Part shown: positions 496 through 59,085 of the stretch, piece after piece
Layout: each line of letters opens with the position of its first letter
Numbering within the stretch: position 1 is the first letter of the stretch
Position numbers and translations under genes: made by a program
The notes under the pieces: generated by a model
Seen by the model: only the letters and a program-made list of their open reading frames with translations
Database searches by the model: none
What the model was told of the DNA's origin: nothing
Origin: Shigella phage phi25-307
Direction: 5' to 3' (one strand)
Sequence record: MG589383
Length of the DNA: 64,000 nucleotides

Positions 496-894
496 TTACA
501 CTCTATTGCTTGACGCTAACTGAAGTTTAATTTGTTCAATATCGTCAGGGTTGTCTACGACCGAAAATCTAATCTCTACTATAACCGTATAGTCATCATA
601 TACTGGCGTTACACTTACAGAAAGTTTGTCGATGCGTGGCTCGTAGTTACGAACAGCTGCCTGGATATTACGCTCAATCGTATCGGCTGTAAGTGGTGTC
701 ATGTTCTCGAAAAGTTCGTCGACCAAATCGCATCCAAATTCAGGGTCGAAGGGGCGTGAGCCTTTTCTAGTTGTCACTATGCCAAGAAGACTATTTTTAA
801 TAGAACGAAGTCCTACAGAACGAGCAACGTCCTTGTTCCAATCCATACGCATTTCTGGGTCGATATCTGAATAAAGTTTATTGATATTAGACAT
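496..894 (-). CDS. 25: baseplate wedge subunit gp25 (132 aa)
   Basis: Translation collinear with T4 gp25 (NINKLYSDIDPEM...IEQIKLQLASSNRV), same length. Confidence 0.93.
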   Translation of the reverse strand: MSNINKLYSDIDPEMRMDWNKDVARSVGLRSIKNSLLGIVTTRKGSRPFDPEFGCDLVDELFENMTPLTADTIERNIQAAVRNYEPRIDKLSVSVTPVYDDYTVIVEIRFSVVDNPDDIEQIKLQLASSNRV

Positions 895-1520
895 TATAGT
901 AACTCAAAGAATTCTTTGAGGCCTCGTATTGTGTGAACGTGTGACGCCCCACATTTGGGACATTTAATAGGGGTTGCCAGATAAATTGATGGCGATACTA
1001 AAAGATTTTTAATATTGATCATGTCATCTTCTGTTATAAGGCCGTAAAGGTCGTTTATTTCTGCTTCAGTTAAATCTTCAACAGGGATGGACTCTCCATT
1101 GACAAAAACGGCCTCAATACATGAAGCAATCATTAATGCGATATTTTTATCATCAAATAATTTAGGTTGACGGAACTTAATTTTAATACCACTGAACGAA
1201 TACCAGGGGTCGGCCTGTTCATCTAATTGAGTGTGCAATAAATTCATATAGACTTGAAATGAATGCCCACAGGAACAATTCCAGGTGTGTTCTTGATTCA
1301 CTTCACCTAATGAATGTGCCCACAGATTTACCAACAATAGCTCTGCTTCTTGTTTAGTCAAGTTTTTAGCGTTAGAGCAATTAGTGATAATATTGTTCAC
1401 TGCTGATTCAATAGTACCGGTAGCCCGCGCACCTATGAGTCCTAAATATTCTTTTAAAGTAAAGGCTCTACAATTCACTTCTTTATCGCCTAAACGTACG
1501 GTAAACGTATATTTGTACAT
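894..1520 (-). CDS. 26: baseplate hub subunit gp26 (208 aa)
   Basis: Size and position between 25 and 51 as in T4; late promoter TATAAATA about 20 nt upstream on minus strand. Confidence 0.85.
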   Translation of the reverse strand: MYKYTFTVRLGDKEVNCRAFTLKEYLGLIGARATGTIESAVNNIITNCSNAKNLTKQEAELLLVNLWAHSLGEVNQEHTWNCSCGHSFQVYMNLLHTQLDEQADPWYSFSGIKIKFRQPKLFDDKNIALMIASCIEAVFVNGESIPVEDLTEAEINDLYGLITEDDMINIKNLLVSPSIYLATPIKCPKCGASHVHTIRGLKEFFELL

Positions 1521-3970: not shown

Positions 3971-5739
3971 AACCTGAAGAAATGAAATCCATGCGTAGAA
4001 ATAAGGTCATTGCCGATAATAAACCACAAAAAGTAGCTGCAACAGCAGCTACTGATTCATTAGAAGCATTGAATGATATTTCATCAAAACTAGACGATGT
4101 CCAAGCCGCGTCTGAACTCACATCACAAAGTGTAGAAGATAAAGGCAATGGAATTATTGAATCAATTGGAGACTTAAAGAATTCGACAGATAATACTGCT
4201 GAAGGCACAGAGCTTATCGCAGAAGTTATTGAAAAACAAACTGAAGTCACTAAAAGTATAAACGAAGTTTCTAGTGCAATAAGCTCCAAGTTAGACCGAT
4301 TAGCTACATTATTAGAGCAAAAATTACAAACATCTACCGCTATTCAAAATACAGGAGGCACCTCTCTTGAAGTAATTGAGAACGCAATACCTGTTAAAGT
4401 GGTTGAGAATGAAACTTATGATGAGCTGTTTAAAGCATTACCTACACCTGAAAAGATTGATAATAAGCCAGACGAAGATTTCTTCCCAGCCCCGGTTCAA
4501 GAAAGTGCTAATTCTACTTCTGATTCTAAAGGCGGGATTAGCTTTAAATTGAGCGATAAAATTGCAATGCTCACCAAAACAGTTCAAGCCGGGTTTAATA
4601 AATCAATATCAATTTCTGACAGAATTGCTGGAATGCTTTTCAAATACACTATAACGGCTGCTATTGAAGCAGCAAAAATGGCCGCACTTATTCTTGGTAT
4701 TGTTATCGGTATTGATTTATTGATAGTCCATTTCAAATATTGGACAGACAAGTTCACTTCTGCCTGGGATTTATTTGATGAAAACTTTACTAAATTCTCC
4801 GATGAAGCTAAAGAGTGGGGTAAATTCTTAAGTGATATATTCACTTCTATTGACTCTATAAAACAATTGTGGGAAGCTGGAGACTGGGGTGGTTTAACCG
4901 TTGCTATTGTCAAAGGTGTAGGAACAGCATTAATGAACTTAGGTGAACTAATTCAATTAGGAATGGCTAAACTCTCCGCGTCTATATTGCGTGCTATAGG
5001 TTTTGGTGATACCGCAGACGAAATAGAAGGACGTGCTTTGGAAGGATTCCAAGAAACTACTGGGAACACATTAAAGAAAGAAGACCAAGAGAAAGTCGCT
5101 AAATATCAAATGAAGCGTGACGATGGGGAATTAGGAACCGTTTCTAAAGGTCTTGATATGTTACAACGCGGCAAAACATTCGTTACTAACTGGGTTCGTG
5201 GTAATGACAATAAAGAAGAGTTTAGTACAAGCGATGAGCGTGCTGCGGAATCGGCAAAATTAAAAGAGTTACCTGAAGAGGAGCGTAAAGAGGCGTATAT
5301 AAAAGCTAATGAAACTCGTGCGGCACTAGTTAGATTTGAGGATTATATCGATAAAATCGATATGACTAATCCAGAAAATGCTAAAAACGTCGAGAAGTCT
5401 TATGCTGATTTAAGTAAACTTATTAAAGACCCTGAACTTAATAAAACTCCTGTTGTTAAAAAGGAATTGGATGCTAGATTTGAAAAGCTAAATAATAAAA
5501 TGGCTGAAGCCAAAAAAGCCCAGACAACAGTTAAGCCTGAATCTTCGACTAAATCTCCTGAAGCAAAACAAGTTCAGTCAATAGAGAAAGGACGTGCTTC
5601 TGAATCTAAACAACAGCAACCGGTAGCGGCGATTAGTAACACAAATAATGTCGTCAAAAAGAATACCGTAGTCCAGAATATGACCCCTGTAACAAGTACA
5701 ACGGCTCCTGGAATTTTCCATGCCACCGGTGTTAATTAA
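3967..5739 (+). CDS. 29: baseplate hub / tail length determinator gp29 (590 aa)
   Basis: Size identical to T4 gp29, synteny, low-complexity coiled regions typical of a tape-measure-like protein. Confidence 0.88.
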   Translation: MKPEEMKSMRRNKVIADNKPQKVAATAATDSLEALNDISSKLDDVQAASELTSQSVEDKGNGIIESIGDLKNSTDNTAEGTELIAEVIEKQTEVTKSINEVSSAISSKLDRLATLLEQKLQTSTAIQNTGGTSLEVIENAIPVKVVENETYDELFKALPTPEKIDNKPDEDFFPAPVQESANSTSDSKGGISFKLSDKIAMLTKTVQAGFNKSISISDRIAGMLFKYTITAAIEAAKMAALILGIVIGIDLLIVHFKYWTDKFTSAWDLFDENFTKFSDEAKEWGKFLSDIFTSIDSIKQLWEAGDWGGLTVAIVKGVGTALMNLGELIQLGMAKLSASILRAIGFGDTADEIEGRALEGFQETTGNTLKKEDQEKVAKYQMKRDDGELGTVSKGLDMLQRGKTFVTNWVRGNDNKEEFSTSDERAAESAKLKELPEEERKEAYIKANETRAALVRFEDYIDKIDMTNPENAKNVEKSYADLSKLIKDPELNKTPVVKKELDARFEKLNNKMAEAKKAQTTVKPESSTKSPEAKQVQSIEKGRASESKQQQPVAAISNTNNVVKKNTVVQNMTPVTSTTAPGIFHATGVN

Positions 5740-7819: not shown

Positions 7820-7827
7820 AGAAAAAA

Positions 7828-7849
7828 GGGAGACGTTGTCTCCCTTTAG
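7828..7849. terminator. bidirectional hairpin terminator between convergent gene 54 and the alt-downstream ORF
   Basis: GGGAGAC-GTTG-TCTCCC followed by TTT; 9 nt after gene 54 stop. Confidence 0.55.
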
Positions 7850-10329: not shown

Positions 10330-10349
10330 AAAAAGAGCCCGAAGGCTCT
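10330..10349 (-). terminator. rho-independent terminator (stem AGAGCC/GGCTCT, UUCG loop, U-tract)
   Basis: Minus-strand AAGAGCC-TTCG-GGCTCTT-TTTGG immediately after ORF 10349-10537. Confidence 0.55.
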
Positions 10350-10537
10350 TAATCCACAATCGGGAGCAAAGTACGATAAACTTCAAAATTAGGGCCTTTT
10401 TCGTACCCATTAACGTTATCTACGAAAACCCGATACGAATTTTCATTAGGAAAATCTAATATAATCTGAGAGCAAGAGGTGGAAACATCTCCACCATCCT
10501 TCTTAGCTACAATAACTGTTTCTAAATAAGCTTTCAT
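10349..10537 (-). CDS. hypothetical small protein (62 aa), translationally coupled to ligase (TAATG overlap)
   Basis: ORF between ligase and alt; start ATG 10537 overlaps ligase stop; terminator hairpin at its 3-prime end. Confidence 0.45.
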   Translation of the reverse strand: MKAYLETVIVAKKDGGDVSTSCSQIILDFPNENSYRVFVDNVNGYEKGPNFEVYRTLLPIVD

Positions 10538-13983: not shown

Positions 13984-14037
13984 ATTTTTCCACTTACTAA
14001 AGAAATCATTATACTCTAATCCGTCCTTGGATGTAAA

Positions 14038-14652
14038 CTACTTAACGAAATTAATTTCTACTGGATGAACAACAGGTTGAGCAGTGATATATTGAGTAAT
14101 TGCTTTCATGACTAGAGCTTCAGAACCAGGATTTTTCTCAACGAATTCACGTGCTTGGTTATGAGCTTCAAGTTCACTTAGTAAACCACTTCGTTGGCAT
14201 CCACGGTCTTGAGTACCCTGTTCAGATAAAAAGACGACGATGTATTTTTCATCGTCATACGGTTTAGACGGTTGAGCAAATGTTCCTTTACTTCCAAAAG
14301 GAGAGTTATGACGCCACATCACGCCGTGAGGAGTTTCAACCTTCATATATTCGTGCGGGCCATTTTTCTTAGTTTCTTGATGTGGAACTTCGTGGACCTT
14401 AGGGTTAGGACATTCAATAAAATGCTCATCTAAATCGGTCGAGAATATTAAAGTAAAACAATTACTGAATTTACCAACACCTGCCTGATAAATTTTACCT
14501 TCAGAAGTTCTAATTTCACAAACCGAGCCGGCATCAGTAACTTCTAAAACTTCAAAAGGCTCGATAAGGTCATATGAGAACATGTTTTTAAGGCGTGGAG
14601 TAATATCCCCATTTTTAAAATTCATTTTATAAAAAGTATTAACTTTAAACAT
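14038..14652 (-). CDS. hypothetical protein (204 aa)
   Basis: Long ORF, SD GAGGAAATT upstream of ATG; no recognisable domain. Confidence 0.55.
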   Translation of the reverse strand: MFKVNTFYKMNFKNGDITPRLKNMFSYDLIEPFEVLEVTDAGSVCEIRTSEGKIYQAGVGKFSNCFTLIFSTDLDEHFIECPNPKVHEVPHQETKKNGPHEYMKVETPHGVMWRHNSPFGSKGTFAQPSKPYDDEKYIVVFLSEQGTQDRGCQRSGLLSELEAHNQAREFVEKNPGSEALVMKAITQYITAQPVVHPVEINFVK

Positions 14653-14687
14653 AATTTCCTCAGTGGGAGCCGAAGCTCCCAGTTAAA

Positions 14688-15053
14688 TTAGATATCGAAT
14701 TCGTTAAGAACTACATCAAAGATTGCTTCGAGATGTTCAGGTTTAGCTCGGTTACTCAGGATATGACGAATCCAAGTTTTAACCAGAAGTTTACGATTAT
14801 CACCGTTCCAGCAAGGATGAGTACCTAAATCACGTTGACGGAAATCGTCATCTAATGCAATTTTGAAGTTGGAACCTTCCATCGTGATTGAAACCGTGAT
14901 GCCATTTTCAAATCGCATATAAACGTAATTAGGAGTCATATACTGCTCAATTTCACATACTGAACCGTTATTATGTTTCCATAAGCAAATCGTATCAATA
15001 GAACCAGCAATACCGTTAGAAACATATTTACGTTCGAAGTTGATGTAGTTCAT
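14688..15053 (-). CDS. hypothetical protein (121 aa)
   Basis: ORF with early promoter (15092-15124) and SD GGAGAATAAA upstream. Confidence 0.5.
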   Translation of the reverse strand: MNYINFERKYVSNGIAGSIDTICLWKHNNGSVCEIEQYMTPNYVYMRFENGITVSITMEGSNFKIALDDDFRQRDLGTHPCWNGDNRKLLVKTWIRHILSNRAKPEHLEAIFDVVLNEFDI

Positions 15054-15091
15054 TTATTCTCCAGATGTTTAAGTTGTTTGTTGGTACAGGT

Positions 15092-15124
15092 CTATAATAA
15101 CAAAACCTGTACCAAAGTAAACAT
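15092..15124 (-). promoter_or_regulatory. T4-type early promoter with inverted repeat GGTACAGGT/ACCTGTACC flanking -10
   Basis: Minus-strand GTTTAC..17 nt..TATTAT; palindrome 15085-15112. Confidence 0.5.
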
Positions 15125-15600: not shown

Positions 15601-15623
15601 CAAAAGGGAGACCGAAGTCTCCC
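15601..15623 (-). terminator. rho-independent terminator (GGGAGAC-UUCG-GUCUCCC, U-tract)
   Basis: Minus-strand hairpin followed by TTTTG; after ORF 15629-15808. Confidence 0.55.
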
Positions 15624-15628
15624 TAAAA

Positions 15629-17137: not shown

Positions 17138-17719
17138 TTATTCACCACAAAAGTTTCGGATTTGTTCCCAATTCAGAGAACGAAGATTATTACGAGAGTA
17201 CTGAATTACTTCAATACCGGCTTGTTTTAGAATGTCTGCCCAATTTTCAGGAGATCTGTCATATAATTCTGCGTATACAACCTTTTTAATACCTGACTGC
17301 GTAATAGCTTTAGTGCAATCAGGACATGGAGAAAGTGTCGTATACAACGTAGCACCTTCAATAGAATTACCTTTACGAGCTGCAAACAAAATGGCATTCA
17401 ATTCAGCATGGATTTCGTTATTAGCAGACCATGCACTATGAGCGGCCCGATGTTCTTTAGCCAAAACAAAATTATCCACCCGTCCAAATGCTGTAGTGCC
17501 TTCTTTATGTCCGGCAACGATGACCGGGCTTGGTTTATTCTTCAACCAACCGTTTTCGGATGCATGTTCACAACAGTTAACGCCACCTGCTGGTGAGCCA
17601 TTATATCCAGTAGAGATAATGCGTCCATCTTTTTCAATGACGGCACCAACTTTCCATGAACAACATTTTGATTCTTGAGAAATCAGATATGCAATCTGAA
17701 GGTATGTGCTAGCTTTCAT
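17138..17719 (-). CDS. cd: dCMP deaminase (193 aa)
   Basis: Cytidine/dCMP deaminase zinc motifs HAELNA and PCPDC; size equals T4 Cd. Confidence 0.9.
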   Translation of the reverse strand: MKASTYLQIAYLISQESKCCSWKVGAVIEKDGRIISTGYNGSPAGGVNCCEHASENGWLKNKPSPVIVAGHKEGTTAFGRVDNFVLAKEHRAAHSAWSANNEIHAELNAILFAARKGNSIEGATLYTTLSPCPDCTKAITQSGIKKVVYAELYDRSPENWADILKQAGIEVIQYSRNNLRSLNWEQIRNFCGE

Positions 17720-18711
17720 TATTGAACCTTATTAATATAAGTTAACAGCTCTTTAGTTTGTTCCCAACCGATGCACGCATCGGTAACGGAAACGCCATAG
17801 GACATATTATCAGAAATTTTTTGATTTCCTTCATGTAGGAATGATTCTATCATAATTCCTTTGACCAAATCATTAGCTGCTAAATTTTTACCAATACCAA
17901 TTTGATTGCTATAATACCCATCAGCGTTTGCGTGGCTACAGTCAACCATTACATAATGATTCAGACCTAATGCACTTGCTTTGTTAGAAGCTTCTTGAAT
18001 ATCAGAAGAATGATAGTTCGGGCCGTTAGTCCCGCCACGCAATACGATATGCGTATTCTGATTACCTTCAGCTTCAACAATGCCTACAGTACCATCGACG
18101 TCCATACCCATATACCGATGAGGCCAGGCGGCACTATACATCGCGTCTGTAGCTACTTTAATAGAACCATTGGTTGCGTTCTTGAAGCCTACGCACATCG
18201 GTAGACCTGAAGCAATTTCACGATGTGTCTGACTTTCAGTCGTACGGGCGCCAATAGCAACCCATGAGAAAATACCAGAAAGATACTTAATCGTGAATGG
18301 GTCTAATACTTCAGTTGCTAATGGAAGTCCCATACGTAGAAGTTTACGACACAATGTTCGTGCAACTATAAGACCGTGGTTCATATCAAAACTTCCGTCA
18401 AGATATGGATCATTTACAAGACCTTTCCAACCTACGGTAGTTCGAGGCTTTTCAAAATAAACGCGCATCACTAACAGAACATTAGGAAGACGAGTTTGAA
18501 GTTCAGCCAGACGTTTGCCGTATTCAACAGCAGCAATAGGGTCATGAATTGAACAAGGACCTACAACAATAAGTTTGCGTGGGTCTTCACCGTTCATAAT
18601 CGAATTAACTTGTTCGCGATGAGAAGCCACTTGTGATGCGTAAGCTTCCGACAAAGGAATAATCTCAGCCAGTTCTTTTGGAGAAATAAGTTTTCTGACG
18701 ATAGGTAACAT
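17719..18711 (-). CDS. 3-deoxy-D-arabino-heptulosonate-7-phosphate (DAHP) synthase, class I-alpha AroG-like (330 aa)
   Basis: Motifs shared with E. coli AroG along the whole length: GPCSIHDP, VMRVYFEKPRTTVGWKGL.NDP, GARTTESQ.HRE.ASGL, VGFKN.T.G.IKVA.DA, LRGG, D.SHAN, ESFL.EGNQ, TDACIGWE. Confidence 0.85.
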   Translation of the reverse strand: MLPIVRKLISPKELAEIIPLSEAYASQVASHREQVNSIMNGEDPRKLIVVGPCSIHDPIAAVEYGKRLAELQTRLPNVLLVMRVYFEKPRTTVGWKGLVNDPYLDGSFDMNHGLIVARTLCRKLLRMGLPLATEVLDPFTIKYLSGIFSWVAIGARTTESQTHREIASGLPMCVGFKNATNGSIKVATDAMYSAAWPHRYMGMDVDGTVGIVEAEGNQNTHIVLRGGTNGPNYHSSDIQEASNKASALGLNHYVMVDCSHANADGYYSNQIGIGKNLAANDLVKGIMIESFLHEGNQKISDNMSYGVSVTDACIGWEQTKELLTYINKVQ

Positions 18712-19068: not shown

Positions 19069-19128
19069 TTCTATTTCCTCATTTGTTGGTAGAGTTATAG
19101 TATCACAACTCCACCATGTTGTAAACCA

Positions 19129-21194: not shown

Positions 21195-21251
21195 TTAGAT
21201 TTCCTCAATTATCCATAGGAGCATTATACTCTGCTCCTGAGAGTTTGTAAA

Positions 21252-23841: not shown

Positions 23842-24250
23842 ACTTTTTCTTATGTTGGATATTCCAAGGCGGGTTGAACTTTTTGATAAAAAGCGGTTCT
23901 TCAAGGTCCATTGTTGCGATGGTCATTGAACCAAGTTCGTTGGTGACTGAAAGGTCAAAACATTGGCGGGCCCAGAATTCAACCTTTTTGCCTTGCATTA
24001 AGGCATCCAAAATCATAAGTGATTTTCTTGAATCTGAAGTCTGGTCTTTTCGATTTATGGCTGTTCGATAATAGTTAATGCGTTTCTTTAAATTCTTGGT
24101 TTTACCAATATACACAAGTTCGTCATCTATAGCAATAGCGTATATGACATTTTTCTTATTAGGGACATCAACTGTTTTAATTGTTGCATCTTCTAATAGC
24201 TCCAATTCTGTATATTTAATAAAGGAATATTCGGCGGCAATATCTTTCAT
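23840..24250 (-). CDS. denA: endonuclease II, GIY-YIG family (136 aa)
   Basis: Collinear with T4 DenA (YSFIKYTELEL, NVIYAIAI.DELVYIGKTKNL.KRINYYRTAINRKD, FNPPWNIQHKKK). Confidence 0.9.
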   Translation of the reverse strand: MKDIAAEYSFIKYTELELLEDATIKTVDVPNKKNVIYAIAIDDELVYIGKTKNLKKRINYYRTAINRKDQTSDSRKSLMILDALMQGKKVEFWARQCFDLSVTNELGSMTIATMDLEEPLFIKKFNPPWNIQHKKK

Positions 24251-24276
24251 AATAAAGTGGGACCGAAGTCCCGTCC

Positions 24277-25464
24277 TTAGAAATATTTTTTGTATGAATT
24301 GATTACATTTTGGTCTACATCATTATCAATTTGTGCGACAAGATAAGAACTGATTTCAACTTCCTGAGGAGCTGCTTGAACTAAATCAGAGTTCAGATAT
24401 TCACGAATCCAAGGATATGGATGCTTGGTCGGAGCATCAGTGATTGGGCATGGTAAACCACACTGTTTCATACGAGACACAGTCAAGTAATCAACAAAAG
24501 CACACATACTCTGCGTATTGATACCTGGGCATGTACCGTTTTTAAAGAGGTGTGCAGCCCATTCCTTCTCTTGTCTATTTACTTCCATAAAAATGTCAAC
24601 TGCTTCTTGTTCACATTCTTTAGCAATTTGAACCCACTCATCACCATCAGTACCAGATTGAAGTTGACGGATAATGTACTGAGTACCCTTGAGGTGGAGT
24701 TGTTCGTCACGAGCAATGAACTTCATAATCTTTGCATTACCTTCCATAATTTCCATATTTTTATGGAAGTTGAAAGTACATGCAAATGATACGTAAAAAC
24801 GAATAGCTTCTAAGGCATTGATAACATGCAAACAGAGATAAAGAGACTTCATTAAATCACGCTTGGCGTTAAACATTATTTCTTCATACATCTCAATATC
24901 ATTCTGCTGGCATGAGCCTATTGAACGCTCATAATCTTCCTTAGCGTTTTCCCAATAACGAGTTTTAACCAGAACATCATCGTAATATTTACCTATTGAT
25001 TCAGCTCGTTTCATGATTGCTTCGTCTAATACAATTTCATCAAATACCTTAGATGGGTCCGTATAAAGATTTCGCATAATATGAGTATACGAACGAGAGT
25101 GAATAGTTTCACTGAATGTCCATGTTGCAACCCACGTATCTAATGAAGGGTCAGAAATCAGTGCCATAAGTACCGCAGATGGGGCCCTGCCTTGGATAGA
25201 ATCTAATAATGATTGATACTTAAGATTGTTTGTAAAGATGTCCTGTTGGAACTGAGGAAGCTTATTGAACTGCGCAGAGTCCAACATCAAGTTTACCTCT
25301 TCTGGGCGCCAAAAAAACGATAATTGCTTTTCGGTCAAATCTTCAAAAACTTTATGGCGTTGAATATCATAACGCGCAATACCAAGACCAGAACCAAAGA
25401 ACATCGGTTCATTCAAAACATCAACTTGTTGTGTGTTAAAAACTGTACTCATTATATTTCTCAC
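24277..25464 (-). CDS. nrdB: ribonucleotide reductase small (beta) subunit (395 aa), uninterrupted
   Basis: Size and synteny with T4 NrdB; continuous reading frame, no intron-sized gap. Confidence 0.88.
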   Translation of the reverse strand: MRNIMSTVFNTQQVDVLNEPMFFGSGLGIARYDIQRHKVFEDLTEKQLSFFWRPEEVNLMLDSAQFNKLPQFQQDIFTNNLKYQSLLDSIQGRAPSAVLMALISDPSLDTWVATWTFSETIHSRSYTHIMRNLYTDPSKVFDEIVLDEAIMKRAESIGKYYDDVLVKTRYWENAKEDYERSIGSCQQNDIEMYEEIMFNAKRDLMKSLYLCLHVINALEAIRFYVSFACTFNFHKNMEIMEGNAKIMKFIARDEQLHLKGTQYIIRQLQSGTDGDEWVQIAKECEQEAVDIFMEVNRQEKEWAAHLFKNGTCPGINTQSMCAFVDYLTVSRMKQCGLPCPITDAPTKHPYPWIREYLNSDLVQAAPQEVEISSYLVAQIDNDVDQNVINSYKKYF

Positions 25465-30056: not shown

Positions 30057-30102
30057 TTTTATTTGATAGGACTACTATAACATAGCCCTATCTTGTTATA
30101 AA

Positions 30103-30579: not shown

Positions 30580-30602
30580 CAAAAGGGAGACCGAAGTCTC
30601 CC
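30580..30602 (-). terminator. gene 32 terminator (GGGAGAC-UUCG-GUCUCCC, U-tract)
   Basis: Hairpin starts 6 nt after gene 32 stop; TTTTGAG follows. Confidence 0.65.
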
Positions 30603-31622: not shown

Positions 31623-32276
31623 TTAATACTTACATGATTTGATTGTTTCTATGAACAATTTCTTAGCAGCATTTCCATCGATTTGAAGTATTTTTCGATA
31701 TGCCTTTAATTTGGTAGAATAATTTTGCCAGACTAAATTGTCAGTAAGTTCGTCGTGCTTATCTATAATATTCAAAAATGAGTCCAACAATAAGAAAGTC
31801 TCAAATGAGATTATATTGCTTTGTAGCAATTTGAATATGTAGCTCGACTGAACGTTGTTATTATAATCAAATATCTCTTGAAGCGCACTAACTTCAACTT
31901 TCTTACTGAAATAGTAGATGTTACGTACGTCTTCAGCAAACGTCTCCTTGGCTTGTTTGAGACGTCCAATATATTCCCTATAGAAAACTAATGCATCAGC
32001 GTCTGATATCTCACCAATCCATGCGTCTTGGTTAGCAACTAAGTTGCTTATGAATATCAAGGTGAGTTCCTTCAATTTATATTTCTCTGCTAGTTTTTCA
32101 AAGAAATATTTATCTCGGCGTTTTTGATACGCATTATCCGAAACACGCATGCACCAGTTATATTTGATTACGTCATACCGACCACCAAAGTGGTTTTTGC
32201 ACATCAAGTATAGTTTATATACTGATTTACCGTTAATATAACGTTCTCCGTCAGGAGGCATGCGTATTTTAATCAT
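31623..32276 (-). CDS. 59: helicase loader gp59 (217 aa)
   Basis: Size identical to T4 gp59; position between 32 and 33. Confidence 0.85.
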   Translation of the reverse strand: MIKIRMPPDGERYINGKSVYKLYLMCKNHFGGRYDVIKYNWCMRVSDNAYQKRRDKYFFEKLAEKYKLKELTLIFISNLVANQDAWIGEISDADALVFYREYIGRLKQAKETFAEDVRNIYYFSKKVEVSALQEIFDYNNNVQSSYIFKLLQSNIISFETFLLLDSFLNIIDKHDELTDNLVWQNYSTKLKAYRKILQIDGNAAKKLFIETIKSCKY

Positions 32277-32952
32277 AGTTCCATCCAGGCCATTTTGAAG
32301 ATTTAAGTCTATACGTAACTAGAGATGCAGAAATATTAAAAACATCCGAAACTTCTGTGCATGACGAGTATTTTATACCATCAATAATTATAGGTTTTTG
32401 TTTTTTAATAGTTCTTTCTTTAGAATGCGGCTTTGAATTTGCTATTCTAAGAGCTTCTTTGGTTGAATCAGGCATCGGCTTATTCGTTTTTCGCCCTTTT
32501 CGGACTTTACTCAAAGCTAATTTATGAGCTTCAGATAGTTTCTTACCCTTATTAGGGGATGGTATTTTTCTTTCTAATCTGGTTTTAGATACTTTAGCCT
32601 TAGTCTCTTCAGATCTAGGTTTACCTAATTTAGAAAGTGAAATAGCCCTTTTAGCTTCATCACTTTGTTTTTTACCAGGGCCACCTTTACCACCGGGAAC
32701 TAAGTTATAAGTATCAGTTCGCAAAACAAAATCTTCATTAACCAATTCTGCTTCTTTTTTATAGGCGTCCTTGTCATTATCATATTCATAAAGAATTTCG
32801 GTATAAAAATTTTTTAGTCCATATTTAGCTTTGGCCGCTAATATAGCGCGGCCTGATCCAATATACCAATCTTTCTCTTTATGTTTTTTGTGTACGCCTA
32901 TATAAATTTTACCATTTATTTTATTGGTAGTTTTATACACAACGTATTTCAT
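32269..32952 (-). CDS. free-standing GIY-YIG homing endonuclease, Seg-like (227 aa)
   Basis: N-terminal GIY-YIG module (KYVVYKTTNKINGKIYIGVH...R...E) followed by Lys/Ser-rich DNA-binding-type repeats; wedged between 59 and 33 with overlapping stops/starts. Confidence 0.75.
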   Translation of the reverse strand: MKYVVYKTTNKINGKIYIGVHKKHKEKDWYIGSGRAILAAKAKYGLKNFYTEILYEYDNDKDAYKKEAELVNEDFVLRTDTYNLVPGGKGGPGKKQSDEAKRAISLSKLGKPRSEETKAKVSKTRLERKIPSPNKGKKLSEAHKLALSKVRKGRKTNKPMPDSTKEALRIANSKPHSKERTIKKQKPIIIDGIKYSSCTEVSDVFNISASLVTYRLKSSKWPGWNYD

Positions 32953-39579: not shown

Positions 39580-39604
39580 GGGAGACTTCAGTCTCCCATT
39601 TTTG
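39580..39604 (+). terminator. terminator after gene 35 (GGGAGAC-TTCA-GTCTCCC, T-tract)
   Basis: Hairpin then ATTTTTG; directly upstream of gene 36 late promoter. Confidence 0.6.
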
Positions 39605-43300: not shown

Positions 43301-43568
43301 CGTGAGTGGTGCTACTGCATCGTCGAATATGGCCAAAACTTCTTCAGACGGTGCCCACACCCATAGTTGGTCTGGTACTACTAGCACCACAGGTAACCAT
43401 GCCCACACCGTAGGTATTGGCGCCCATACTCACACCGTAGGTATTGGCGCTCACACCCATTCGGTTGCAATTGGTTCACATGGTCATACAATAACTGTAA
43501 ATGCCACAGGAAATACAGAAAACACAGTTAAAAACGTTGCTTTTAACTATATCGTTCGTTTAGCATAA
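40311..43568 (+). CDS. 37: long tail fibre distal subunit / receptor-recognising gp37 (1085 aa)
   Basis: Size, synteny, C-terminal HxH repeat region, followed by T4-type gp38 gene. Confidence 0.9.
43407..43514 (+). repeat. four tandem 27-nt coding repeats in gene 37 encoding H-x-H-[TS]-[VI]-x-[IV]-[GN]-x units
   Basis: CATGCCCACACCGTAGGTATTGGCGCC / CATACTCACACCGTAGGTATTGGCGCT and two degenerate copies, in frame. Confidence 0.8.
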
Positions 43569-43574
43569 GGAGAA

Positions 43575-43593
43575 GGGACTTCTGTCCCTTTTT
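43575..43593 (+). terminator. terminator after gene 37 (GGGAC-TTCT-GTCCC, T-tract)
   Basis: Hairpin then TTTTTAT, 7 nt after gene 37 stop. Confidence 0.55.
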
Positions 43594-43598
43594 ATAAT

Positions 43599-44150
43599 AT
43601 GAAACTCTATCACTATTATTTTGACACTAAAGAATTTTACAAAGAAGAAAATTATAAACCATTAAAAGGCGTAGGATTTCCAGCTCATTCGACACCAAAA
43701 AAACCTTTAGACCCTAAAGAAGGCTATGCTGTTGTATTTGATGAACGCGAACAAGAATGGGTATATGTTGAAGACCATCGTGGAAAAACAGTATGGACTT
43801 ATGATAAGCAAAAAATTGTTATTGACACTCCAGGTGCTCTTCAAAATGTTACTACAGAAGAACCTGGTGAATTTGACATTTGGACCGGCGACGGGTGGAA
43901 GGAAGATGAAGCATATAAACGCGTAGTTCAACGTGATAAGAAAATTCATGAACTCTATAAATTATTCAGTGTTTTAAGTTCTCTTATTGACGCAGAGGTT
44001 GCTAATAGAGAAGAAAAACGAAAATTTAAAGAGCTCAAAAAATTCTTTGCCCTTTTAGAAAAACATGAACATCTTGGTGGTGAATTCCCTAAATTCCCTG
44101 ACCTTGAAAACAAATCTATTGTCAAAGCGATTATAAATATCTTTAAGTAA
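43599..44150 (+). CDS. 38: gp38, T4-type tail fibre assembly chaperone (183 aa)
   Basis: Collinear with T4 gp38 (YHYYFDTKEFYKEENYKP, EGYAVVFDER, FALLEKHEHLGGEFP), same length. Confidence 0.88.
   Translation: MKLYHYYFDTKEFYKEENYKPLKGVGFPAHSTPKKPLDPKEGYAVVFDEREQEWVYVEDHRGKTVWTYDKQKIVIDTPGALQNVTTEEPGEFDIWTGDGWKEDEAYKRVVQRDKKIHELYKLFSVLSSLIDAEVANREEKRKFKELKKFFALLEKHEHLGGEFPKFPDLENKSIVKAIINIFK
44132..44139 (+). promoter_or_regulatory. late promoter TATAAATA for holin gene t (inside 3-prime end of gene 38)
   Basis: Exact consensus 21 nt upstream of ATG 44160. Confidence 0.6.
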
Positions 44151-47475: not shown

Positions 47476-47496
47476 CAAAAGGGAGCCGAAGCTCCC
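47476..47496 (-). terminator. terminator downstream of gene 52 (GGGAGC-UUCG-GCUCCC, U-tract)
   Basis: Minus-strand hairpin followed by TTTTGTG; upstream of motA promoter. Confidence 0.55.
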
Positions 47497-47572
47497 TAAT
47501 CGTGTTTGTCCAACCAATACAGCCAAATCACTAGTGCAGCTATTGCACCGAGAAATCCTAAGGCTAGGGCAC

Positions 47573-48902: not shown

Positions 48903-49043
48903 TCACCATATTAATGAACGAATAGCCATTATAACATCTGAAATGAAAAGCACTACTTGGATTAGCCCAAACATCACACCATAGTACAGAACCGTAAGCA
49001 ACAACAAGAGCCCGAAGGCTCCTGCTAAGATTTTCTTAATCAT
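48903..49043 (-). CDS. small hydrophobic membrane peptide (46 aa; not in ORF track)
   Basis: Hand-translated MIKKILAGAFGLLLLLTVLYYGVMFGLIQVVLFISDVIMAIRSLIW; stop 4 nt before gene 52 ATG; start overlaps upstream peptide stop (ATGATTAA). Confidence 0.4.
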   Translation of the reverse strand: MIKKILAGAFGLLLLLTVLYYGVMFGLIQVVLFISDVIMAIRSLIW

Positions 49044-49188: not shown

Positions 49189-49240
49189 TTTAATTACCTC
49201 AAAAATAAATTAAAGGCCTAGCTTAATAGGCCTGTATAAA

Positions 49241-49687: not shown

Positions 49688-49727
49688 GCTAATTTCCTCA
49701 ATTGATTAATGATTTTATTATCCAATG

Positions 49728-49762
49728 AGAGCATTATACTCTGCTCTCAAGAGTTTGTACAA
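49728..49762 (-). promoter_or_regulatory. early promoter upstream of ndd with palindrome GAGAGCAGAGTATAATGCTCTC over the -10
   Basis: -10 TATAAT inside an inverted repeat; near-identical cassette at 21218-21250. Confidence 0.45.
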
Positions 49763-49965: not shown

Positions 49966-50215
49966 TTTGTGTTCCTCATGTTTCAGTAGGACTACTATAC
50001 CATAATCCTACCTTGATGTAAACAATTAAATTACATTAAAATATGTTAAAGCCAACCATGTTCCAGTGAACGAACATACGATGTAAAAACCCGTATCACA
50101 AATTGTTCTTAGTACAATAAGAAGCGCATTTTTCATAAGTACCTCAATGCAATTGAAAATATTATACAAATCATAGGGATACTAAGCAACCATATTCCGA
50201 TCCACATTTTAGAGC

Positions 50216-50479: not shown

Positions 50480-50547
50480 GATGTTATCCTCTTTTAGATA
50501 GGACTACTATATCATAGTCCTACTTAGTTGTAAACACTTTTATGAAA

Positions 50548-51340: not shown

Positions 51341-51366
51341 AGAAAAAAAAGGGGACCGAAGTCCCC
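51341..51366 (-). terminator. rIIB terminator (GGGGAC-UUCG-GUCCCC, U8 tract)
   Basis: Hairpin begins 6 nt after rIIB stop; followed by TTTTTTTTCTTT on the minus strand. Confidence 0.7.
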
Positions 51367-52316: not shown

Positions 52317-54530
52317 TTATTTGGCCGCTTCCACGGCCTTCATGAATTTAACGATTTGAGCGACCTGTTCTTTGGAAAGAGTACCACGTCGTCCCATGTA
52401 TTCTGACACAATATGATAATTGGTTTCGAATTCAATAACCATTTTATCATCATTATCGTAAGCATTATCTTTAAGCTTATCGAAAATTTTAGCACACAAT
52501 TCTAACTTCTTATTCAGGTCTGTATTAGTAGCACCTGCGAATCGATTCCATCCCCAACGATTATTTACTGTTGAGAGTTTTGCAAAGTCTTTACTGATTT
52601 CTTTGTTCTTAGAGCTAAAATACTTACTAAGGAAGTTAAGCTCTTCGTTACGAGTAATATGATTCAAATAAGGCTGTGCTCTACGACTTGGTGATACATA
52701 CTCATCATAATCCACTTTGTCAATTAGCGTAATATAGTCATTAATTGATTTTTCGAACAAGCATTCTACTTCACCAAGTTTACGAACTTTCTTAGCAATC
52801 TGTGGACGGACTACAGTGAACTCTTTAATACCTGACAAATCAGCAATACGAGTCAAGAAACTAGAATCATAGTTCAACCAACCTTTATCTGCGTCAAGAC
52901 ATTCGGCGTTAGAACGATTACGAATTACAACATAACCTTGAATCTCATCGGCTTTACCGGCCGGAATAAAGAGATCTTCTGATACCCAAACATCGTTTTC
53001 ATTCTTAAAGAACCGATGAGCACTTGGGGATTTAGGACGAGGCTGCGATGAACGTTCTTTAACTTCAATCCACGGTTTAACTAATGCAAGAATTTCAGAG
53101 GTCTTATAAAATTTAAGGCTATCACCAGCGAAAATAACCTTTAATCGTTCTAGAAGTTTCATTGCAACTTCATCTTCCGGATTAACGAATAATACGCTAC
53201 TACCCCATCCGGAAGGAACCTTATCAACGAGTGTTGATGCATCGGTGGAAGTCAAAGCATCGTTCAGAGCACGCATCATTGGTACGCGGCCTTTCACATC
53301 GTCAATAACAATATCAATATGCTTACGACTAATACCTAGCAGGCTATTAATTGAAATAGTTGAAGACGAGCTTCCGCTTTCACGAATACGACGAAGTCGT
53401 GGATCTGAAACGATATCGTATACAACACCAAGGTTGCACCATTCAGGTCCCATTTTAAACCGTTTGTACAACTCAGAATAAGTTAGCTGTTCTTTAGAAT
53501 ATTTCAGTGATTCAATATTAGAACCGGCTTTTTCCATGTATTTACGAGCAGAGTAACCAAGAGAATCGATTTCACGGAATACATGACGTGGATATTCACA
53601 ATCAATCCATTTCTTAGAATCTTCAGCAAATAATTTTGCATCGATTTCTGCAACACGTTTATGGATATTTGCTACTGTACGTTTATCAAATGACAATGCT
53701 TCACGAGACGGGGCTACATCTAGTTCACCCATAGGGAATTTAATATAAGCTGTAGTGCATCGCGTCATCATCCATGTTTGTTCTTTAATAACACTTCCGA
53801 TTGGATATACAATACCACCATAAACAGCCATGATATTACCACGTTCACCCCATGGAGCTTCCTTGGCTAAATAAACATCATCGAATTCCGGGAAGTATTT
53901 GATATCTTTAACACCACGAACTTCTGCAATATCGCCGAGAGGACGCATAACATATGCAATTTCAGATGCGAACTTTTCAAAATCTTCTGGGTTAACCGGT
54001 ACAACTACTTCTACACCCGTACGGTCATCAGGGCCCATCTTATCTACAAAGGTTGGCTTAATCTGTGGACCGCTGTCATCTTGATAAATTACATAACCAC
54101 GAACTTCACCGTTGTGATAAGACGTAAGGTTAAACGTATCGGTATACGCTAGTGGAGCTTTAGAGCCGAGTCCGAATCCACCAATGAAATCGTTACTCGA
54201 TGTTTTAGTTGAAGCAAAATATGAATTATAGATTCCTGGCTCTTCGTCATTACCTCGAATGGTGAAATCACTCATACCAGGACCAAAGTCTCGAACTACA
54301 AAACGTGGGTCTAAACGACCTGGAGCCTGAACAATAAACTTATCAGTGCAACCATTAAGAATTTGACCATCGATACAGTTTGTGATTAATTCGCGTACAC
54401 AAGCCAATTCTTTGTTTGTATAAAGGTCATTAGACAAAATCTTATAAACTTTGCTATTGCCTTGAATAGTAAATGCTGTGCTCTTATCGCCTGAACCAAT
54501 AATCGTTTCTTTAGCCGTTTCAATAATCAT
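52317..54530 (-). CDS. rIIA: rIIA protein (737 aa)
   Basis: Collinear with T4 rIIA (CVRELITN, GRLDPRFV.RDFGPGMSDF, DFIGGFGLGSK, GPQIKPTFV, IYGGIVYPI). Confidence 0.93.
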   Translation of the reverse strand: MIIETAKETIIGSGDKSTAFTIQGNSKVYKILSNDLYTNKELACVRELITNCIDGQILNGCTDKFIVQAPGRLDPRFVVRDFGPGMSDFTIRGNDEEPGIYNSYFASTKTSSNDFIGGFGLGSKAPLAYTDTFNLTSYHNGEVRGYVIYQDDSGPQIKPTFVDKMGPDDRTGVEVVVPVNPEDFEKFASEIAYVMRPLGDIAEVRGVKDIKYFPEFDDVYLAKEAPWGERGNIMAVYGGIVYPIGSVIKEQTWMMTRCTTAYIKFPMGELDVAPSREALSFDKRTVANIHKRVAEIDAKLFAEDSKKWIDCEYPRHVFREIDSLGYSARKYMEKAGSNIESLKYSKEQLTYSELYKRFKMGPEWCNLGVVYDIVSDPRLRRIRESGSSSSTISINSLLGISRKHIDIVIDDVKGRVPMMRALNDALTSTDASTLVDKVPSGWGSSVLFVNPEDEVAMKLLERLKVIFAGDSLKFYKTSEILALVKPWIEVKERSSQPRPKSPSAHRFFKNENDVWVSEDLFIPAGKADEIQGYVVIRNRSNAECLDADKGWLNYDSSFLTRIADLSGIKEFTVVRPQIAKKVRKLGEVECLFEKSINDYITLIDKVDYDEYVSPSRRAQPYLNHITRNEELNFLSKYFSSKNKEISKDFAKLSTVNNRWGWNRFAGATNTDLNKKLELCAKIFDKLKDNAYDNDDKMVIEFETNYHIVSEYMGRRGTLSKEQVAQIVKFMKAVEAAK

Positions 54531-55936: not shown

Positions 55937-55978
55937 AATTAAGCCTTATTAAAATTAAAATGAAGCTCCCGAAGGAGC

Positions 55979-56791
55979 TTAGGACATCCAACACATTTTA
56001 TAACCTTTGCAGGTTCTGTTAGGATTATTTAATGCTTTCAATATATTAGAAGACCCTATATCTAAATACTCCCTTAATTCATAAAGATAGTTAAAATCAA
56101 TAGTTTCACCTGTTTTTACACTTGTGATTCTTATAGGCCTTCTTTCATATTTAGATTTATACAACTCTCTAGTCTTAGCTTTAGTTTCTTCTGACCTAGG
56201 AGTGTATGGTTTAAATCCTTTTGTTTTAAATGTTTCCATTCTTGATTTAGTTATTTTATCCTGGTGTTCTTTTGTTTTTACAGGTGCTTTTCGCCCATTC
56301 TCCCAAGATAACTTGTTGGCCTGTATTATTTTATCTATTGCTTCTTGCGTATGAGTTTTACCATAAAATGGATTTAATTCGCCTATACGTTGTGAAGCAA
56401 TATGTGACATTAATTCTCTTGTTGCTTTAGTATGTTTTTTACCTTTAAATGGGTTGCCATTTTTAGCAATCCATTCTTTCATAAATCTAGAGTGCTCTTT
56501 AGAGAATTCTTGTTTAAGCCAATCATAATCTCTAGAATTTCTAGCTCCCATGTAAAAAGCTCTAATAGCCATAAGCATAGAACGGTTCTTATGAATTTTA
56601 TAAAGCAATAAATGGGCGATAAAATGCTCTCTAGGGGTCATTTTAACTAGATTTGATTTAGCATTACTCCCACCCATAGATTTAGGCAAAATATGGTGAG
56701 TTTCAGTATAATTAGGAATAGTGCTGCGGTTTTTAGCCGCAGCGATAAGTTTATCATAAATTTTACGATAATTCATTATCCTAGCATCCAA
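55979..56791 (-). CDS. free-standing HNH homing endonuclease, Mob-like (270 aa)
   Basis: HNH core (TETHHILPKSMGGSNAKSNLVKMTPREHFIAH) plus repeated NUMOD-like DNA-binding modules (NPFKGKKHT, NPFYGKTHT); overlaps 3-prime end of gene 39 by 16 nt. Confidence 0.8.
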   Translation of the reverse strand: MDARIMNYRKIYDKLIAAAKNRSTIPNYTETHHILPKSMGGSNAKSNLVKMTPREHFIAHLLLYKIHKNRSMLMAIRAFYMGARNSRDYDWLKQEFSKEHSRFMKEWIAKNGNPFKGKKHTKATRELMSHIASQRIGELNPFYGKTHTQEAIDKIIQANKLSWENGRKAPVKTKEHQDKITKSRMETFKTKGFKPYTPRSEETKAKTRELYKSKYERRPIRITSVKTGETIDFNYLYELREYLDIGSSNILKALNNPNRTCKGYKMCWMS

Positions 56792-58641: not shown

Positions 58642-58660
58642 CAAAAAGGGCCGAAGCCCT
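58642..58660 (-). terminator. terminator (GGGC-UUCG-GCCC, U-tract) upstream of gene 39
   Basis: Minus-strand hairpin followed by TTTTTGC; abuts stop of ORF 58660-59085. Confidence 0.5.
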
Positions 58661-59085
58661 TATTTAAATTTAATTTTCTGAAGTGCATCAATTGCAGCCA
58701 AACGCCCTTGTTCACTTTTAACTGTAATGACCACATCGCCTGATACGATCACCGAACCATCAACAAATTCTATAGAGCCTTTTTTGAAATCGACAGATGT
58801 ATCTGGTTCCGGAACTTCTTCAAAGAATTTAAATTCTGCACCATAAAGCAGAATATCACCTTGCATACTATGAATAGTTCGGCCATAATCGCCTACGGCT
58901 TCTACAGCAATCACAGAAACGCCGTAACCAATCATCTCTTCCACAATAAAATCTTTGGACAATAAAGTAGTATGCAGATTAGTATTAAGACGTTTACCAG
59001 TCGTATTAAGAATTCTCAAGAAATTATCTTCCTGTCCTTTGATAATACGATATTTCTTACCAACTTCAAAACCTTTAAAAGCCAT
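58660..59085 (-). CDS. hypothetical protein (141 aa)
   Basis: ORF; terminator hairpin at its 3-prime end. Confidence 0.5.
   Translation of the reverse strand: MAFKGFEVGKKYRIIKGQEDNFLRILNTTGKRLNTNLHTTLLSKDFIVEEMIGYGVSVIAVEAVGDYGRTIHSMQGDILLYGAEFKFFEEVPEPDTSVDFKKGSIEFVDGSVIVSGDVVITVKSEQGRLAAIDALQKIKFK

Follow-up and report, generated by a model that had tools for sequence, protein, structure and literature searches.

Two C(UUCG)G hairpins between early and middle genes of Shigella phage phi25-307: a proposed decay barrier after gene 30.7 and a candidate split ribosome-binding site for denA

What might a stable hairpin do between two phage genes, if it is not followed by the run of U that marks an intrinsic terminator? 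The question is raised by positions 14664-14681 of a 64,000-nucleotide (nt) stretch of Shigella phage phi25-307 (MG589383; the whole stretch is called the window below), where a G+C-rich stem with a UUCG loop is located on the minus strand between gene 30.7 and an open reading frame (ORF) of 204 amino acids (aa), and, less clearly, by a smaller hairpin at 24259-24272, between nrdB and denA. A first-pass annotation, made from the letters of the window, had set these two apart from a larger number of terminators as candidate RNA stability or processing elements. In the account given here, which as a whole is assigned a probability of about 0.5, the hairpins are of the type known from phage T4 and most would be terminators, the hairpin at 14664 would be a barrier to mRNA decay, and the one at 24259 would bridge a split ribosome-binding site.

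The window belongs to a T4-like (Tequatrovirus) phage genome. It is collinear with T4 over its whole length (uvsY/25, gene 30, 31, nrdB, 32, the tail-fibre genes 34-38, motA, 52 and rIIB/rIIA, then 39, dexA and dda, among others), and over a 4-kb stretch around 14664-14681 the Tequatrovirus genomes of many coliphages are 93-98% identical to it. The early and middle genes of the window are on the minus strand. Hairpins were searched for as TTCG flanked by complementary arms, and those in which a C-G pair closes the UUCG loop and the stem has 5 or more base pairs (bp), 3 or more of them G-C, were counted; the chance level was determined with 300 dinucleotide-preserving shuffles, both strands taken together; a looser pattern search without the pairing requirement was uninformative. 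Ten hairpins were found, all of them on the minus strand, against a mean of 0.08 (maximum 1) in the shuffles, and chance occurrence was rejected on these numbers. UUCG was also the top tetraloop on the G+C-rich stems of the window (10 cases, compared with 1 for each other loop shown). Apart from one within a coding region (49002), the hairpins lie between genes or at the edge of one (9 of 10), and in every case UUCG is read on the strand that encodes the neighbouring genes. As RNA hairpins of the transcribed strand, they form a genuine family whose occurrence is not random. Rfam gave zero matches at gathering threshold across the whole window.

The family as such is not new: C(UUCG)G hairpins were reportedly described in bacteriophage T4 mRNA by Tuerk et al. 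in 1988 (PNAS 85:1364), and it is to this intercistronic T4 family that the window hairpins belong. Loop, closing pair, position between cistrons and orientation on the transcribed strand are the same, and no essential difference from the T4 hairpins was seen; several sites of the window are positional orthologues of T4 sites with different stems. Where the window has UUCG, T4 has UUCA (between 30.7 and 30.6) and GCAA (between nrdB and denA), with the reverse at other sites. T4 mRNA is where UUCG hairpins were discovered (recounted in PMC4371310), and Durand et al. (PMC1702504) describe intergenic GGAG-containing stem-loops of T4, 'like transcription terminators', as 'often' having a UUCG tetraloop and as resistant to the endonuclease RegB. 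Both 14664 and 24259 have the tetraloop with its C-G closing pair and, by computed free energy, the predicted stability of this family, from which a further site at 7828 is excluded by its GUUG loop.

On the mRNA, the gap between 30.7 and the following ORF reads UAA-uuuaac-UGGGAGC-UUCG-GCUCCCA-cu-GAGG-aaauu-AUG. It comprises 35 nt (14653-14687), bounded by the 30.7 stop codon at 14688 and the next AUG at 14652, and within it the hairpin begins 6 nt after the stop codon and ends 2 nt upstream of the GAGG Shine-Dalgarno sequence. The predicted free energy of the hairpin is -12.4 kcal/mol (z = -3.9); a fold of the 91-nt context keeps it and leaves Shine-Dalgarno sequence and AUG unpaired. Its 3' flank, CUGAGGAA, contains 1 U in 8 nt and lacks the U-run of an intrinsic terminator. 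No promoter was reported in the 35-nt gap, which holds only the hairpin and the translation signals, and because it offers no room for one, the 204-aa ORF must be transcribed through the hairpin. A near-consensus early promoter (TTTACA-18-TATAAT) is located after this ORF, at 13984-14037.

Comparison with related phages indicates that selection on this element is acting on the RNA fold. The T4 counterpart, before gene 30.6 (T4 positions 129460-129479), is GAGGGGC-UUCA-GCCCCUU; at 14 IMG/VR loci the stems are GGGAGC, GGAGGC or GGGGC and the loops UUCG, UUUG or GAAA; and in Winklervirus, Marfavirus, Karamvirus (CC31) and Jiaodavirus, with 30.7 homologues that are 50-59% identical, GGGGC-UUCG/UACG-GCCCC is followed by GAGGAAA and by a downstream gene that differs. 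Loops across all orthologues are UUCG, UACG, GAAA, UUCA and UUUG, and the GAGGAAA after the hairpin is invariant in all relatives compared. Over 11 distinct sequences, the five pairs of the core are paired in 100% of cells and two pairs change on both sides, while slid registers are only 36-70% paired and none of 500 shuffles reached the observed covariation score. The distance from hairpin to GAGG is held at 2-6 nt, compared with 4-15 nt from stop codon to hairpin. No full U-tract follows the stem in T4, at the 14 IMG/VR loci or in the 4 distant genera, the longest run being three U. Loop orientation and swaps among RNA-stable tetraloops mean that the element is not a mere DNA palindrome; as read from these alignments, it is a non-terminator fold that is placed relative to the downstream ribosome-binding site. 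Searches for further genomic contexts of the downstream genes gave only the same contigs.

Three other assignments were tried for 14664 and rejected. A split ribosome-binding site was rejected on the position of GAGG, which is 3' of the hairpin and at a normal 5-nt spacing from the AUG. A site for RNase III was rejected on stem length, 5-7 bp being far too little for this enzyme. A RegB site within the hairpin was rejected as well, its GGAG being paired and then followed by CUUCGG, without the A-rich 3' consensus.

The reading preferred for 14664 starts from the cistron upstream of it. The Shine-Dalgarno sequence of 30.7, GGAGAAUAAAU (15052-15062), fits the RegB consensus GGAGAAUAAAA (PMC1702504); in the form GGAGRAYARA, this consensus has only 3 matches in the window (15508, 15062 and 30051, minus strand), which are the Shine-Dalgarno sequences of 30.8, 30.7 and frd.1. 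The early promoter and the Shine-Dalgarno sequence of 30.7 are also seen in the T4 orthologue, and the latter (GGAGAAUAAA) is given as an experimental RegB cleavage site in a passage of PMC9409239 that cites Truncaite et al. 2006. Cuts by RegB lead to a PNK-dependent 5'-to-3' cascade of RNase G/E cleavages over ~200 nt and also open 3' ends to RNase II, RNase R and PNPase (PMC3014915), and structured GGAG sites are resistant to RegB (PMC1702504). The Shine-Dalgarno sequence of the downstream cistron is GAGG, a sequence that RegB leaves uncut. It is proposed that a bicistronic early mRNA would start at the promoter before 30.7 and read through the hairpin, which, set against a ribosome-bound GAGG, would leave no naked RNA for the RNase G/E cascade and would cap the downstream message at its 5' side; in the opposite direction, it would keep 3' exonucleases out of the 30.7 segment. 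Such a barrier would separate the fates of 30.7 and the next cistron. Hairpins at a 5' terminus are said, from work by Emory, Bouvet and Belasco in 1992, to block the 5'-end-dependent attack of RNase E/G, and 3' hairpins or REP elements, from work by Newbury et al. in 1987, are said to block 3' exonucleases. The 14664 hairpin is like these mRNA-stabilising stem-loops in being short and very stable and in occupying an untranslated gap of a polycistronic mRNA after an A/U-rich 5' single strand; it differs in being internal, so that it would be terminal only after processing, and the likeness is one of anatomy. A further likeness is that the early mRNA of the phage decays via RegB, PNK, RNase G/E and 3' exonucleases (PMC3014915). 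The chance that 14664 is a read-through decay barrier between a RegB-sensitive 30.7 and the next cistron is put at even or a little under.

Several observations weigh against a decay barrier. Klebsiella phage AmPh_EK29 retains the hairpin though its 30.7 uses GAGG; no such hairpin follows frd.1, a RegB-type cistron (site 30051); and Serratia phage 92A1 is without the hairpin, having a UGAGGAG overlap instead. The sequence would, moreover, fit a 5' cap, a 3' barrier or a translational insulator alike, and the T4-type phage literature searched yielded neither transcript-end, cleavage or translation data for 14664 or 24259 nor usable 3'-end maps. The hairpin might mainly serve translation of the downstream ORF, and not decay, by keeping GAGG single-stranded or insulated or by stacking on the Shine-Dalgarno helix. 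The tight distance to the Shine-Dalgarno sequence beside a drifting distance to the stop codon would suit such a role, as would the unpaired initiation signals in the context fold and the recurrence of a hairpin/2-5 nt/Shine-Dalgarno layout before T4 ac and before rIIB. There is, however, no known precedent in which a hairpin is needed 5' of an optimally spaced canonical Shine-Dalgarno sequence, GAGG-N5-AUG is already a strong initiation region, and Serratia phage 92A1 copes with its plain overlap. As the main function this is considered unlikely, and it is compatible with the decay-barrier model. Another U-tract-free hairpin set by an early ribosome-binding site is GGCCG-UGGAAG-CGGCC (52323-52338, minus strand), at the extreme 3' end of the rIIA coding region and 4-5 nt before the AAGGA of rIIB; T4 has GGCC-CUUGC-GGCC in the same place (about 12-30).

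The anatomy of the hairpin at 24259 suggests a part in the initiation of translation. The nrdB/denA junction reads UAAGGA-c-GGGAC-UUCG-GUCCC-acuuuauu-AUG, with a gap of 26 nt (24251-24276) in which no promoter was reported and only the hairpin (predicted free energy -7.5 kcal/mol, z = -2.4) and translation signals are present. AAGGA is the only Shine-Dalgarno-like sequence upstream of denA and is 22-23 nt from the AUG; when the 14-nt hairpin is excluded, a spacing of 9 nt is left (1 nt before and 8 nt after it). The T4 junction, with its hairpin at T4 positions 137936-137949, is UAAGGAG-u-GGGCC-GCAA-GGCCC-auuuuauu-AUG; T4 and 28 of 29 close IMG/VR relatives retain the arrangement UAAGGA-hairpin-7-9 nt-AUG, with stems GGGAC, GGGCC, GGGGC or AAGGGC and loops UUCG, GCAA or GUAA. 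Among 15 distinct sequences, pairing is seen in 96% of cells (at most 73% in slid registers), one stem pair occurring as GC 7, CG 6, AU 1 and GU 1, and the covariation score is 0.339, compared with 0.105 in shuffles, of which 0 of 500 reached the observed value. All 11 variants scored have their best anti-Shine-Dalgarno duplex upstream of the hairpin, at 22-24 nt from the AUG, and in none of these 11 is there a Shine-Dalgarno sequence between hairpin and denA AUG; T4 gene 38, scored likewise, gave the same picture, at 22 nt. In one relative (L042) the hairpin is missing and the nrdB stop codon overlaps the denA start codon (ATGA), which on this arrangement is an alternative way to initiate denA.

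Split ribosome-binding sites with mutational support are those of T4 genes 38 and 25 (Nivinskas et al. 1999; Malys and Nivinskas 2009; reviewed in PMC3014915), the distance between Shine-Dalgarno sequence and AUG in T4 gene 38 being 22 nt (PMC3014915). The gene 38 site of the window, used as internal positive control, reads UAAGGAG-AAGGGAC-UUCU-GUCCCUU-uuuauaau-AUG and is a near copy of the denA junction. The hairpin of gene 38 in T4 itself is AGAGGGGC-UUCG, compared with the UUCU loop and AAGGGAC stem here, and the gene 25 split site is recognisable at 894-925 (minus strand). With the sites of genes 38 and 25, 24259 shares the stop-fused Shine-Dalgarno sequence UAAGGA, the stable tetraloop hairpin, an A/U-rich spacer of ~8 nt and a distance of 22-24 nt from Shine-Dalgarno sequence to AUG, with none at normal spacing; it differs in that denA is an early or middle gene and the others are late. 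By analogy with both, folding of the hairpin would bring AAGGA to ~9 nt from the denA AUG. It is for these reasons, the distant sole Shine-Dalgarno sequence, the conserved hairpin in between and the likeness to gene 38, that 24259 is read as a gene-38-type split ribosome-binding site for denA, an assignment towards which the balance of probability tilts. In the literature searched, denA was not found described as having a split site.

Two features of the junction count against this assignment. The 3' flank of the hairpin, ACUUUAUU, has 5 U in 8, with the run displaced by AC, and is listed as terminator-like by a consensus scan; it is U-rich in most relatives and a canonical U6 in two, which makes partial termination after nrdB plausible, and some termination may be an additional role of this hairpin. 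Furthermore, the minimum-free-energy fold pairs AAGG of the Shine-Dalgarno sequence with the U-rich flank, which could equally be sequestration of the Shine-Dalgarno sequence; gene 38 folds likewise. The start of denA was also considered. In the T4 RefSeq record (NC_000866), denA starts with a GTG at 137951 (137927-137951; 2927-2951 in L005), a codon that borders the hairpin on its 5' side and precedes the conserved ATG by eight codons. Among relatives the codon at this edge is AUG in some and AUA, GAG or ACG in others, compared with GUG in T4. For MHHHHHH-EndoII a mass of 16.8 kDa was published (PMC2764454), which fits the 16.76 kDa of the 136-aa ATG form and does not fit the 17.7 kDa of the 144-aa form. 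A hidden small ORF or an in-frame upstream denA start was rejected, since the edge codon is not conserved and the 136-aa mass fits, and the GTG start in the T4 RefSeq record is probably wrong.

If both hairpins were weak intrinsic terminators, that is, attenuators which lower downstream transcription and have no post-transcriptional role, their membership of the G+C-rich UUCG type that also includes the bona fide terminators of the window would be accounted for, and hairpin size and energy are indeed as at 15605, 30585, 47480 and 51351. The flank of 24259 and its listing in the consensus scan would fit, as would the AUUUUAUU, UUUGUUAU or UUUUUU that follow the hairpin in relatives (the tails range from UUCUGUU to UUUUUU) and the UUU before GAGG in three relatives of 14664. 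Against this, 14664 itself has the single U in 8, and in ~20 orthologues from five genera no U-tract was seen, whereas true terminators nearby keep theirs; the tail of 24259 is U-rich but interrupted. Strong termination would silence the downstream genes, as there is no room for promoters of their own, and both sites need read-through for the next gene to be expressed. A U-rich spacer between Shine-Dalgarno sequence and AUG is normal, the proven split site of gene 38 having UUUUUAUAAU after its hairpin, and the invariant UAAGGA before the denA hairpin and the fixed 2-6 nt to GAGG are left unexplained by termination. As a full explanation for both sites this is judged improbable; as a side role, weak termination is plausible for 24259 and unlikely for 14664. 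The two hairpins are probably not plain terminators but post-transcriptional elements. The first-pass annotation was right in placing both inside operons, given gaps of 35 nt (30.7/ORF) and 26 nt (nrdB/denA) and a downstream gene that needs read-through. Its view that neither has a U-tract is clean only for 14664, because 24259 has U at 5 of 8 positions and is terminator-like in the scan, and its proposal of a stability or processing element is the best available reading for 14664, in view of the deep conservation, the covariation and the steady absence of a U-tract, and would give way to a split Shine-Dalgarno arrangement for 24259.

It is very improbable that the hairpins are linkers at the DNA level for modular recombination, with RNA structure incidental, in the manner of PeSL cassettes, where a stem-loop is located between or over the -35 and -10 boxes of an early promoter (PMC2839356). 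Shuffling mediated by PeSLs is documented in T4-type phages (PMC2839356, PMC4122927), and the likeness extends to intergenic stem-loops in hyperplastic early regions and at boundaries of gene content. The gene after 14664 does vary (30.6 in T4, phrog_17531 here and in L014, others in distant genera) with hairpin-GAGGAAA-AUG constant, which places the hairpin at a module boundary; the junction at which 30.6 and the phrog_17531 ORF are swapped is just past a shared hairpin-GAGG-AUGUUUA. In addition, an identical 16-nt core, GGGAGCTTCGGCTCCC, is present at 14665 (14665-14680) and at 47481 within 47480-47497, and GGGAGAC...GTCTCCC at four sites. A DNA palindrome is strandless, yet all 10 loops read UUCG on the transcribed strand; the replacements are RNA-stable tetraloops (GAAA, GCAA, GUAA, UACG) accompanied by compensatory stem changes, so that only the fold and not the sequence is conserved; and 16 bp is short for homologous recombination. 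The promoter that PeSLs require is missing from the element, and no stem-loop at 14664 or 24259 lies between or over -35 and -10 boxes; membership of the PeSL class was rejected for both, as neither contains a promoter. Least probable is an operator at 14664 for a phage translational repressor or RNA-binding protein, to which the downstream AAAUUAUGUUU, resembling the RegA targets AAAUUAUGAUU and AAAAUUAUGUAC, and the gene 43 operator, a hairpin just upstream of the ribosome-binding site of gp43 itself, would lend an analogy (PMC3014915). Stem and loop sequences vary freely among relatives, however, which speaks against recognition by sequence; proteins are described as not binding to UUCG loops (PMC4371310), and RegA sites as unstructured (PMC3014915).

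Table 1. Positions of the hairpins, initiation signals and flanking genes in the window; terminator and initiation assignments are predictions
Position	Strand	Feature	Location or context
14664-14681	-	UGGGAGC-UUCG-GCUCCCA, predicted non-terminator, read-through	between gene 30.7 and 204-aa ORF
14650-14661	-	initiation region of 204-aa ORF: GAGG 14658-14661, 5-nt spacer, AUG 14650-14652	
14688-15053	-	gene 30.7 (Pfam Phage_T4_Gp30_7), upstream cistron	
14038-14652	-	204-aa ORF, phrog_17531, function unknown	in place of T4 gene 30.6
15052-15121	-	early promoter in inverted repeat, PeSL type GTTTAC-17-TATTAT, then 30.7 Shine-Dalgarno	
24259-24272	-	GGGAC-UUCG-GUCCC, proposed bridging hairpin	between denA Shine-Dalgarno and denA AUG
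24274-24279	-	UAAGGA: nrdB stop (24277-24279) fused with AAGGA Shine-Dalgarno (24274-24278)	
24248-24250	-	denA (endonuclease II) AUG	preceded by ACUUUAUU, without Shine-Dalgarno
43566-43601	+	gene 38 split site, internal positive control: UAAGGAG, AAGGGAC-UUCU-GUCCCUU, UUUAUAAU, AUG	
7825-7847	both	AAAGGGAGAC-GUUG-GUCUCCCUUU, predicted bidirectional terminator	between convergent genes 54 (+) and alt.-3 (-)
10333-10350	-	AAGAGCC-UUCG-GGCUCUU then UUUGG, terminator-like	between alt.1 and alt
15605-15624	-	AGGGAGAC-UUCG-GUCUCCCU then UUUGUG, terminator-like	after gene 30.9
30585-30602	-	GGGAGAC-UUCG-GUCUCCC then UUUUG, terminator-like	directly after gene 32
47480-47497	-	AGGGAGC-UUCG-GCUCCCU then UUUGUG, terminator-like	between genes 52 and motA
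51351-51366	-	GGGGAC-UUCG-GUCCCC then eight U, predicted canonical intrinsic terminator	after rIIB
55963-55980	-	AAGCUCC-UUCG-GGAGCUU then CAUUUUAAUUUU	at stop codon of mobE-like HNH endonuclease ORF
58646-58661	-	AAGGGC-UUCG-GCCCUU then UUUGCUUU, terminator-like	upstream of gene 39
49002-49027	-	C(UUCG)G hairpin, absent from the first-pass list	in 5' coding region of 52.1

For the remaining hairpins (Table 1), ten intergenic sites with CGAA/TTCG loops had been listed beforehand. Nine of the ten coordinates were confirmed; the tenth, at 7828, has the core GGGAGAC-GUUG-GUCUCCC and hence another loop, and the hairpin at 49002-49027 had been overlooked. The GGGAG(A)C stem that had been put forward for the family describes 5 of the 10 listed sites, the others having AAGAGCC, GGGAC, GGGGAC, AAGCUCC or AAGGGC. 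That most are terminators is borne out at the level of sequence, 8 of the 10 being terminator-like combinations of hairpin and U-run. The run is immediately 3' of the stem at 10333, 15605, 30585, 47480, 51351 and 58646; at 55963 it is displaced by two bases (CAUUUUAA), as at 24259. Terminator-like hairpins often directly precede the next early promoter, and the early promoter for 30.8 comes after 15605-15624. Orthologues in T4 were located for 10333 (125541-125564, with a different stem), 15605 (130339-130360), 51351 (167716, a positional orthologue) and 58646 (5381-5398).

The hairpin at 49002-49027 has 11 bp and begins 16 nt after the 52.1 AUG, just past the ac stop codon. At the equivalent place T4 has GGGCUA-UUCAU-UAGCCC, a different sequence, and a structure inside the 52.1 coding sequence just after the ac stop codon appears to be conserved between window and T4. 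On the plus strand, at 39580-39597 between the late genes 35 and 36, GGGAGAC-UUCA-GUCUCCC is followed by AUUUUUGU; its 7-bp stem recurs at 7828, 15605 and 30585. PeSL-like inverted repeats were seen on the minus strand at 19087-19116, 21217-21238, 30065-30092, 49726-49749, 49985-50012, 50498-50523 and 15080-15121, with -10 to -16 kcal/mol, the -10 box of an early promoter in the loop and GTTTACA before it (for example GTTTACAactaaGTAGGAC-TATGATATAGTA-GTCCTAT). As an RNA structure, a hairpin of this type could form only in read-through RNA from upstream.

Some neighbouring features of the window, all on the minus strand where a strand was assigned, were recorded alongside. An ORF of 330 aa between cd and cd.2 (17719-18711, minus strand) strongly matches DAHP_synth_1, with E = 2e-74. 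The T4 segments compared contain nothing equivalent to it, an absence that hints at an auxiliary metabolic gene carried in a hyperplastic region. A mobE-like HNH/NUMOD3 endonuclease ORF (55979-56791, minus strand) adjoins gene 39, and a GIY-YIG seg-like ORF (32269-32952, minus strand) is located between genes 59 and 33. The gene 39 ORF (56776-58596, minus strand; 606 aa) also spans the T4 gene 60 homology, and for this reason the topoisomerase subunit appears to be unsplit. The gene stp is seemingly absent; between ndd and the ac-like ORF there is instead a hairpin, AGGCCU-N8-AGGCCU (49189-49240).

As a textbook family since 1988, found here in a relative of T4, these hairpins are of little value as a discovery and of modest value for phage annotation and engineering. 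For the annotation of T4-type genomes, they imply that G+C-rich UUCG hairpins should not automatically be labelled as terminators: the 30.7 hairpin, which is deeply conserved, would be read through and coupled in position to the ribosome-binding site that follows it, and the nrdB/denA junction has the look of a natural split ribosome-binding site, which would be the third. In a bolder version, which is held to be doubtful, the module of hairpin, 2-6 nt and GAGG, found in at least five T4-like genera, would be a device for differential decay, in which the cascade from a RegB cut in the first cistron would halt at the hairpin and the RegB-insensitive second cistron would outlive the first, with the denA junction in addition as the third natural split site. 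If this were true, many of the 'terminator-like' UUCG hairpins of T4-type genomes would be post-transcriptional punctuation with defined and differing jobs.

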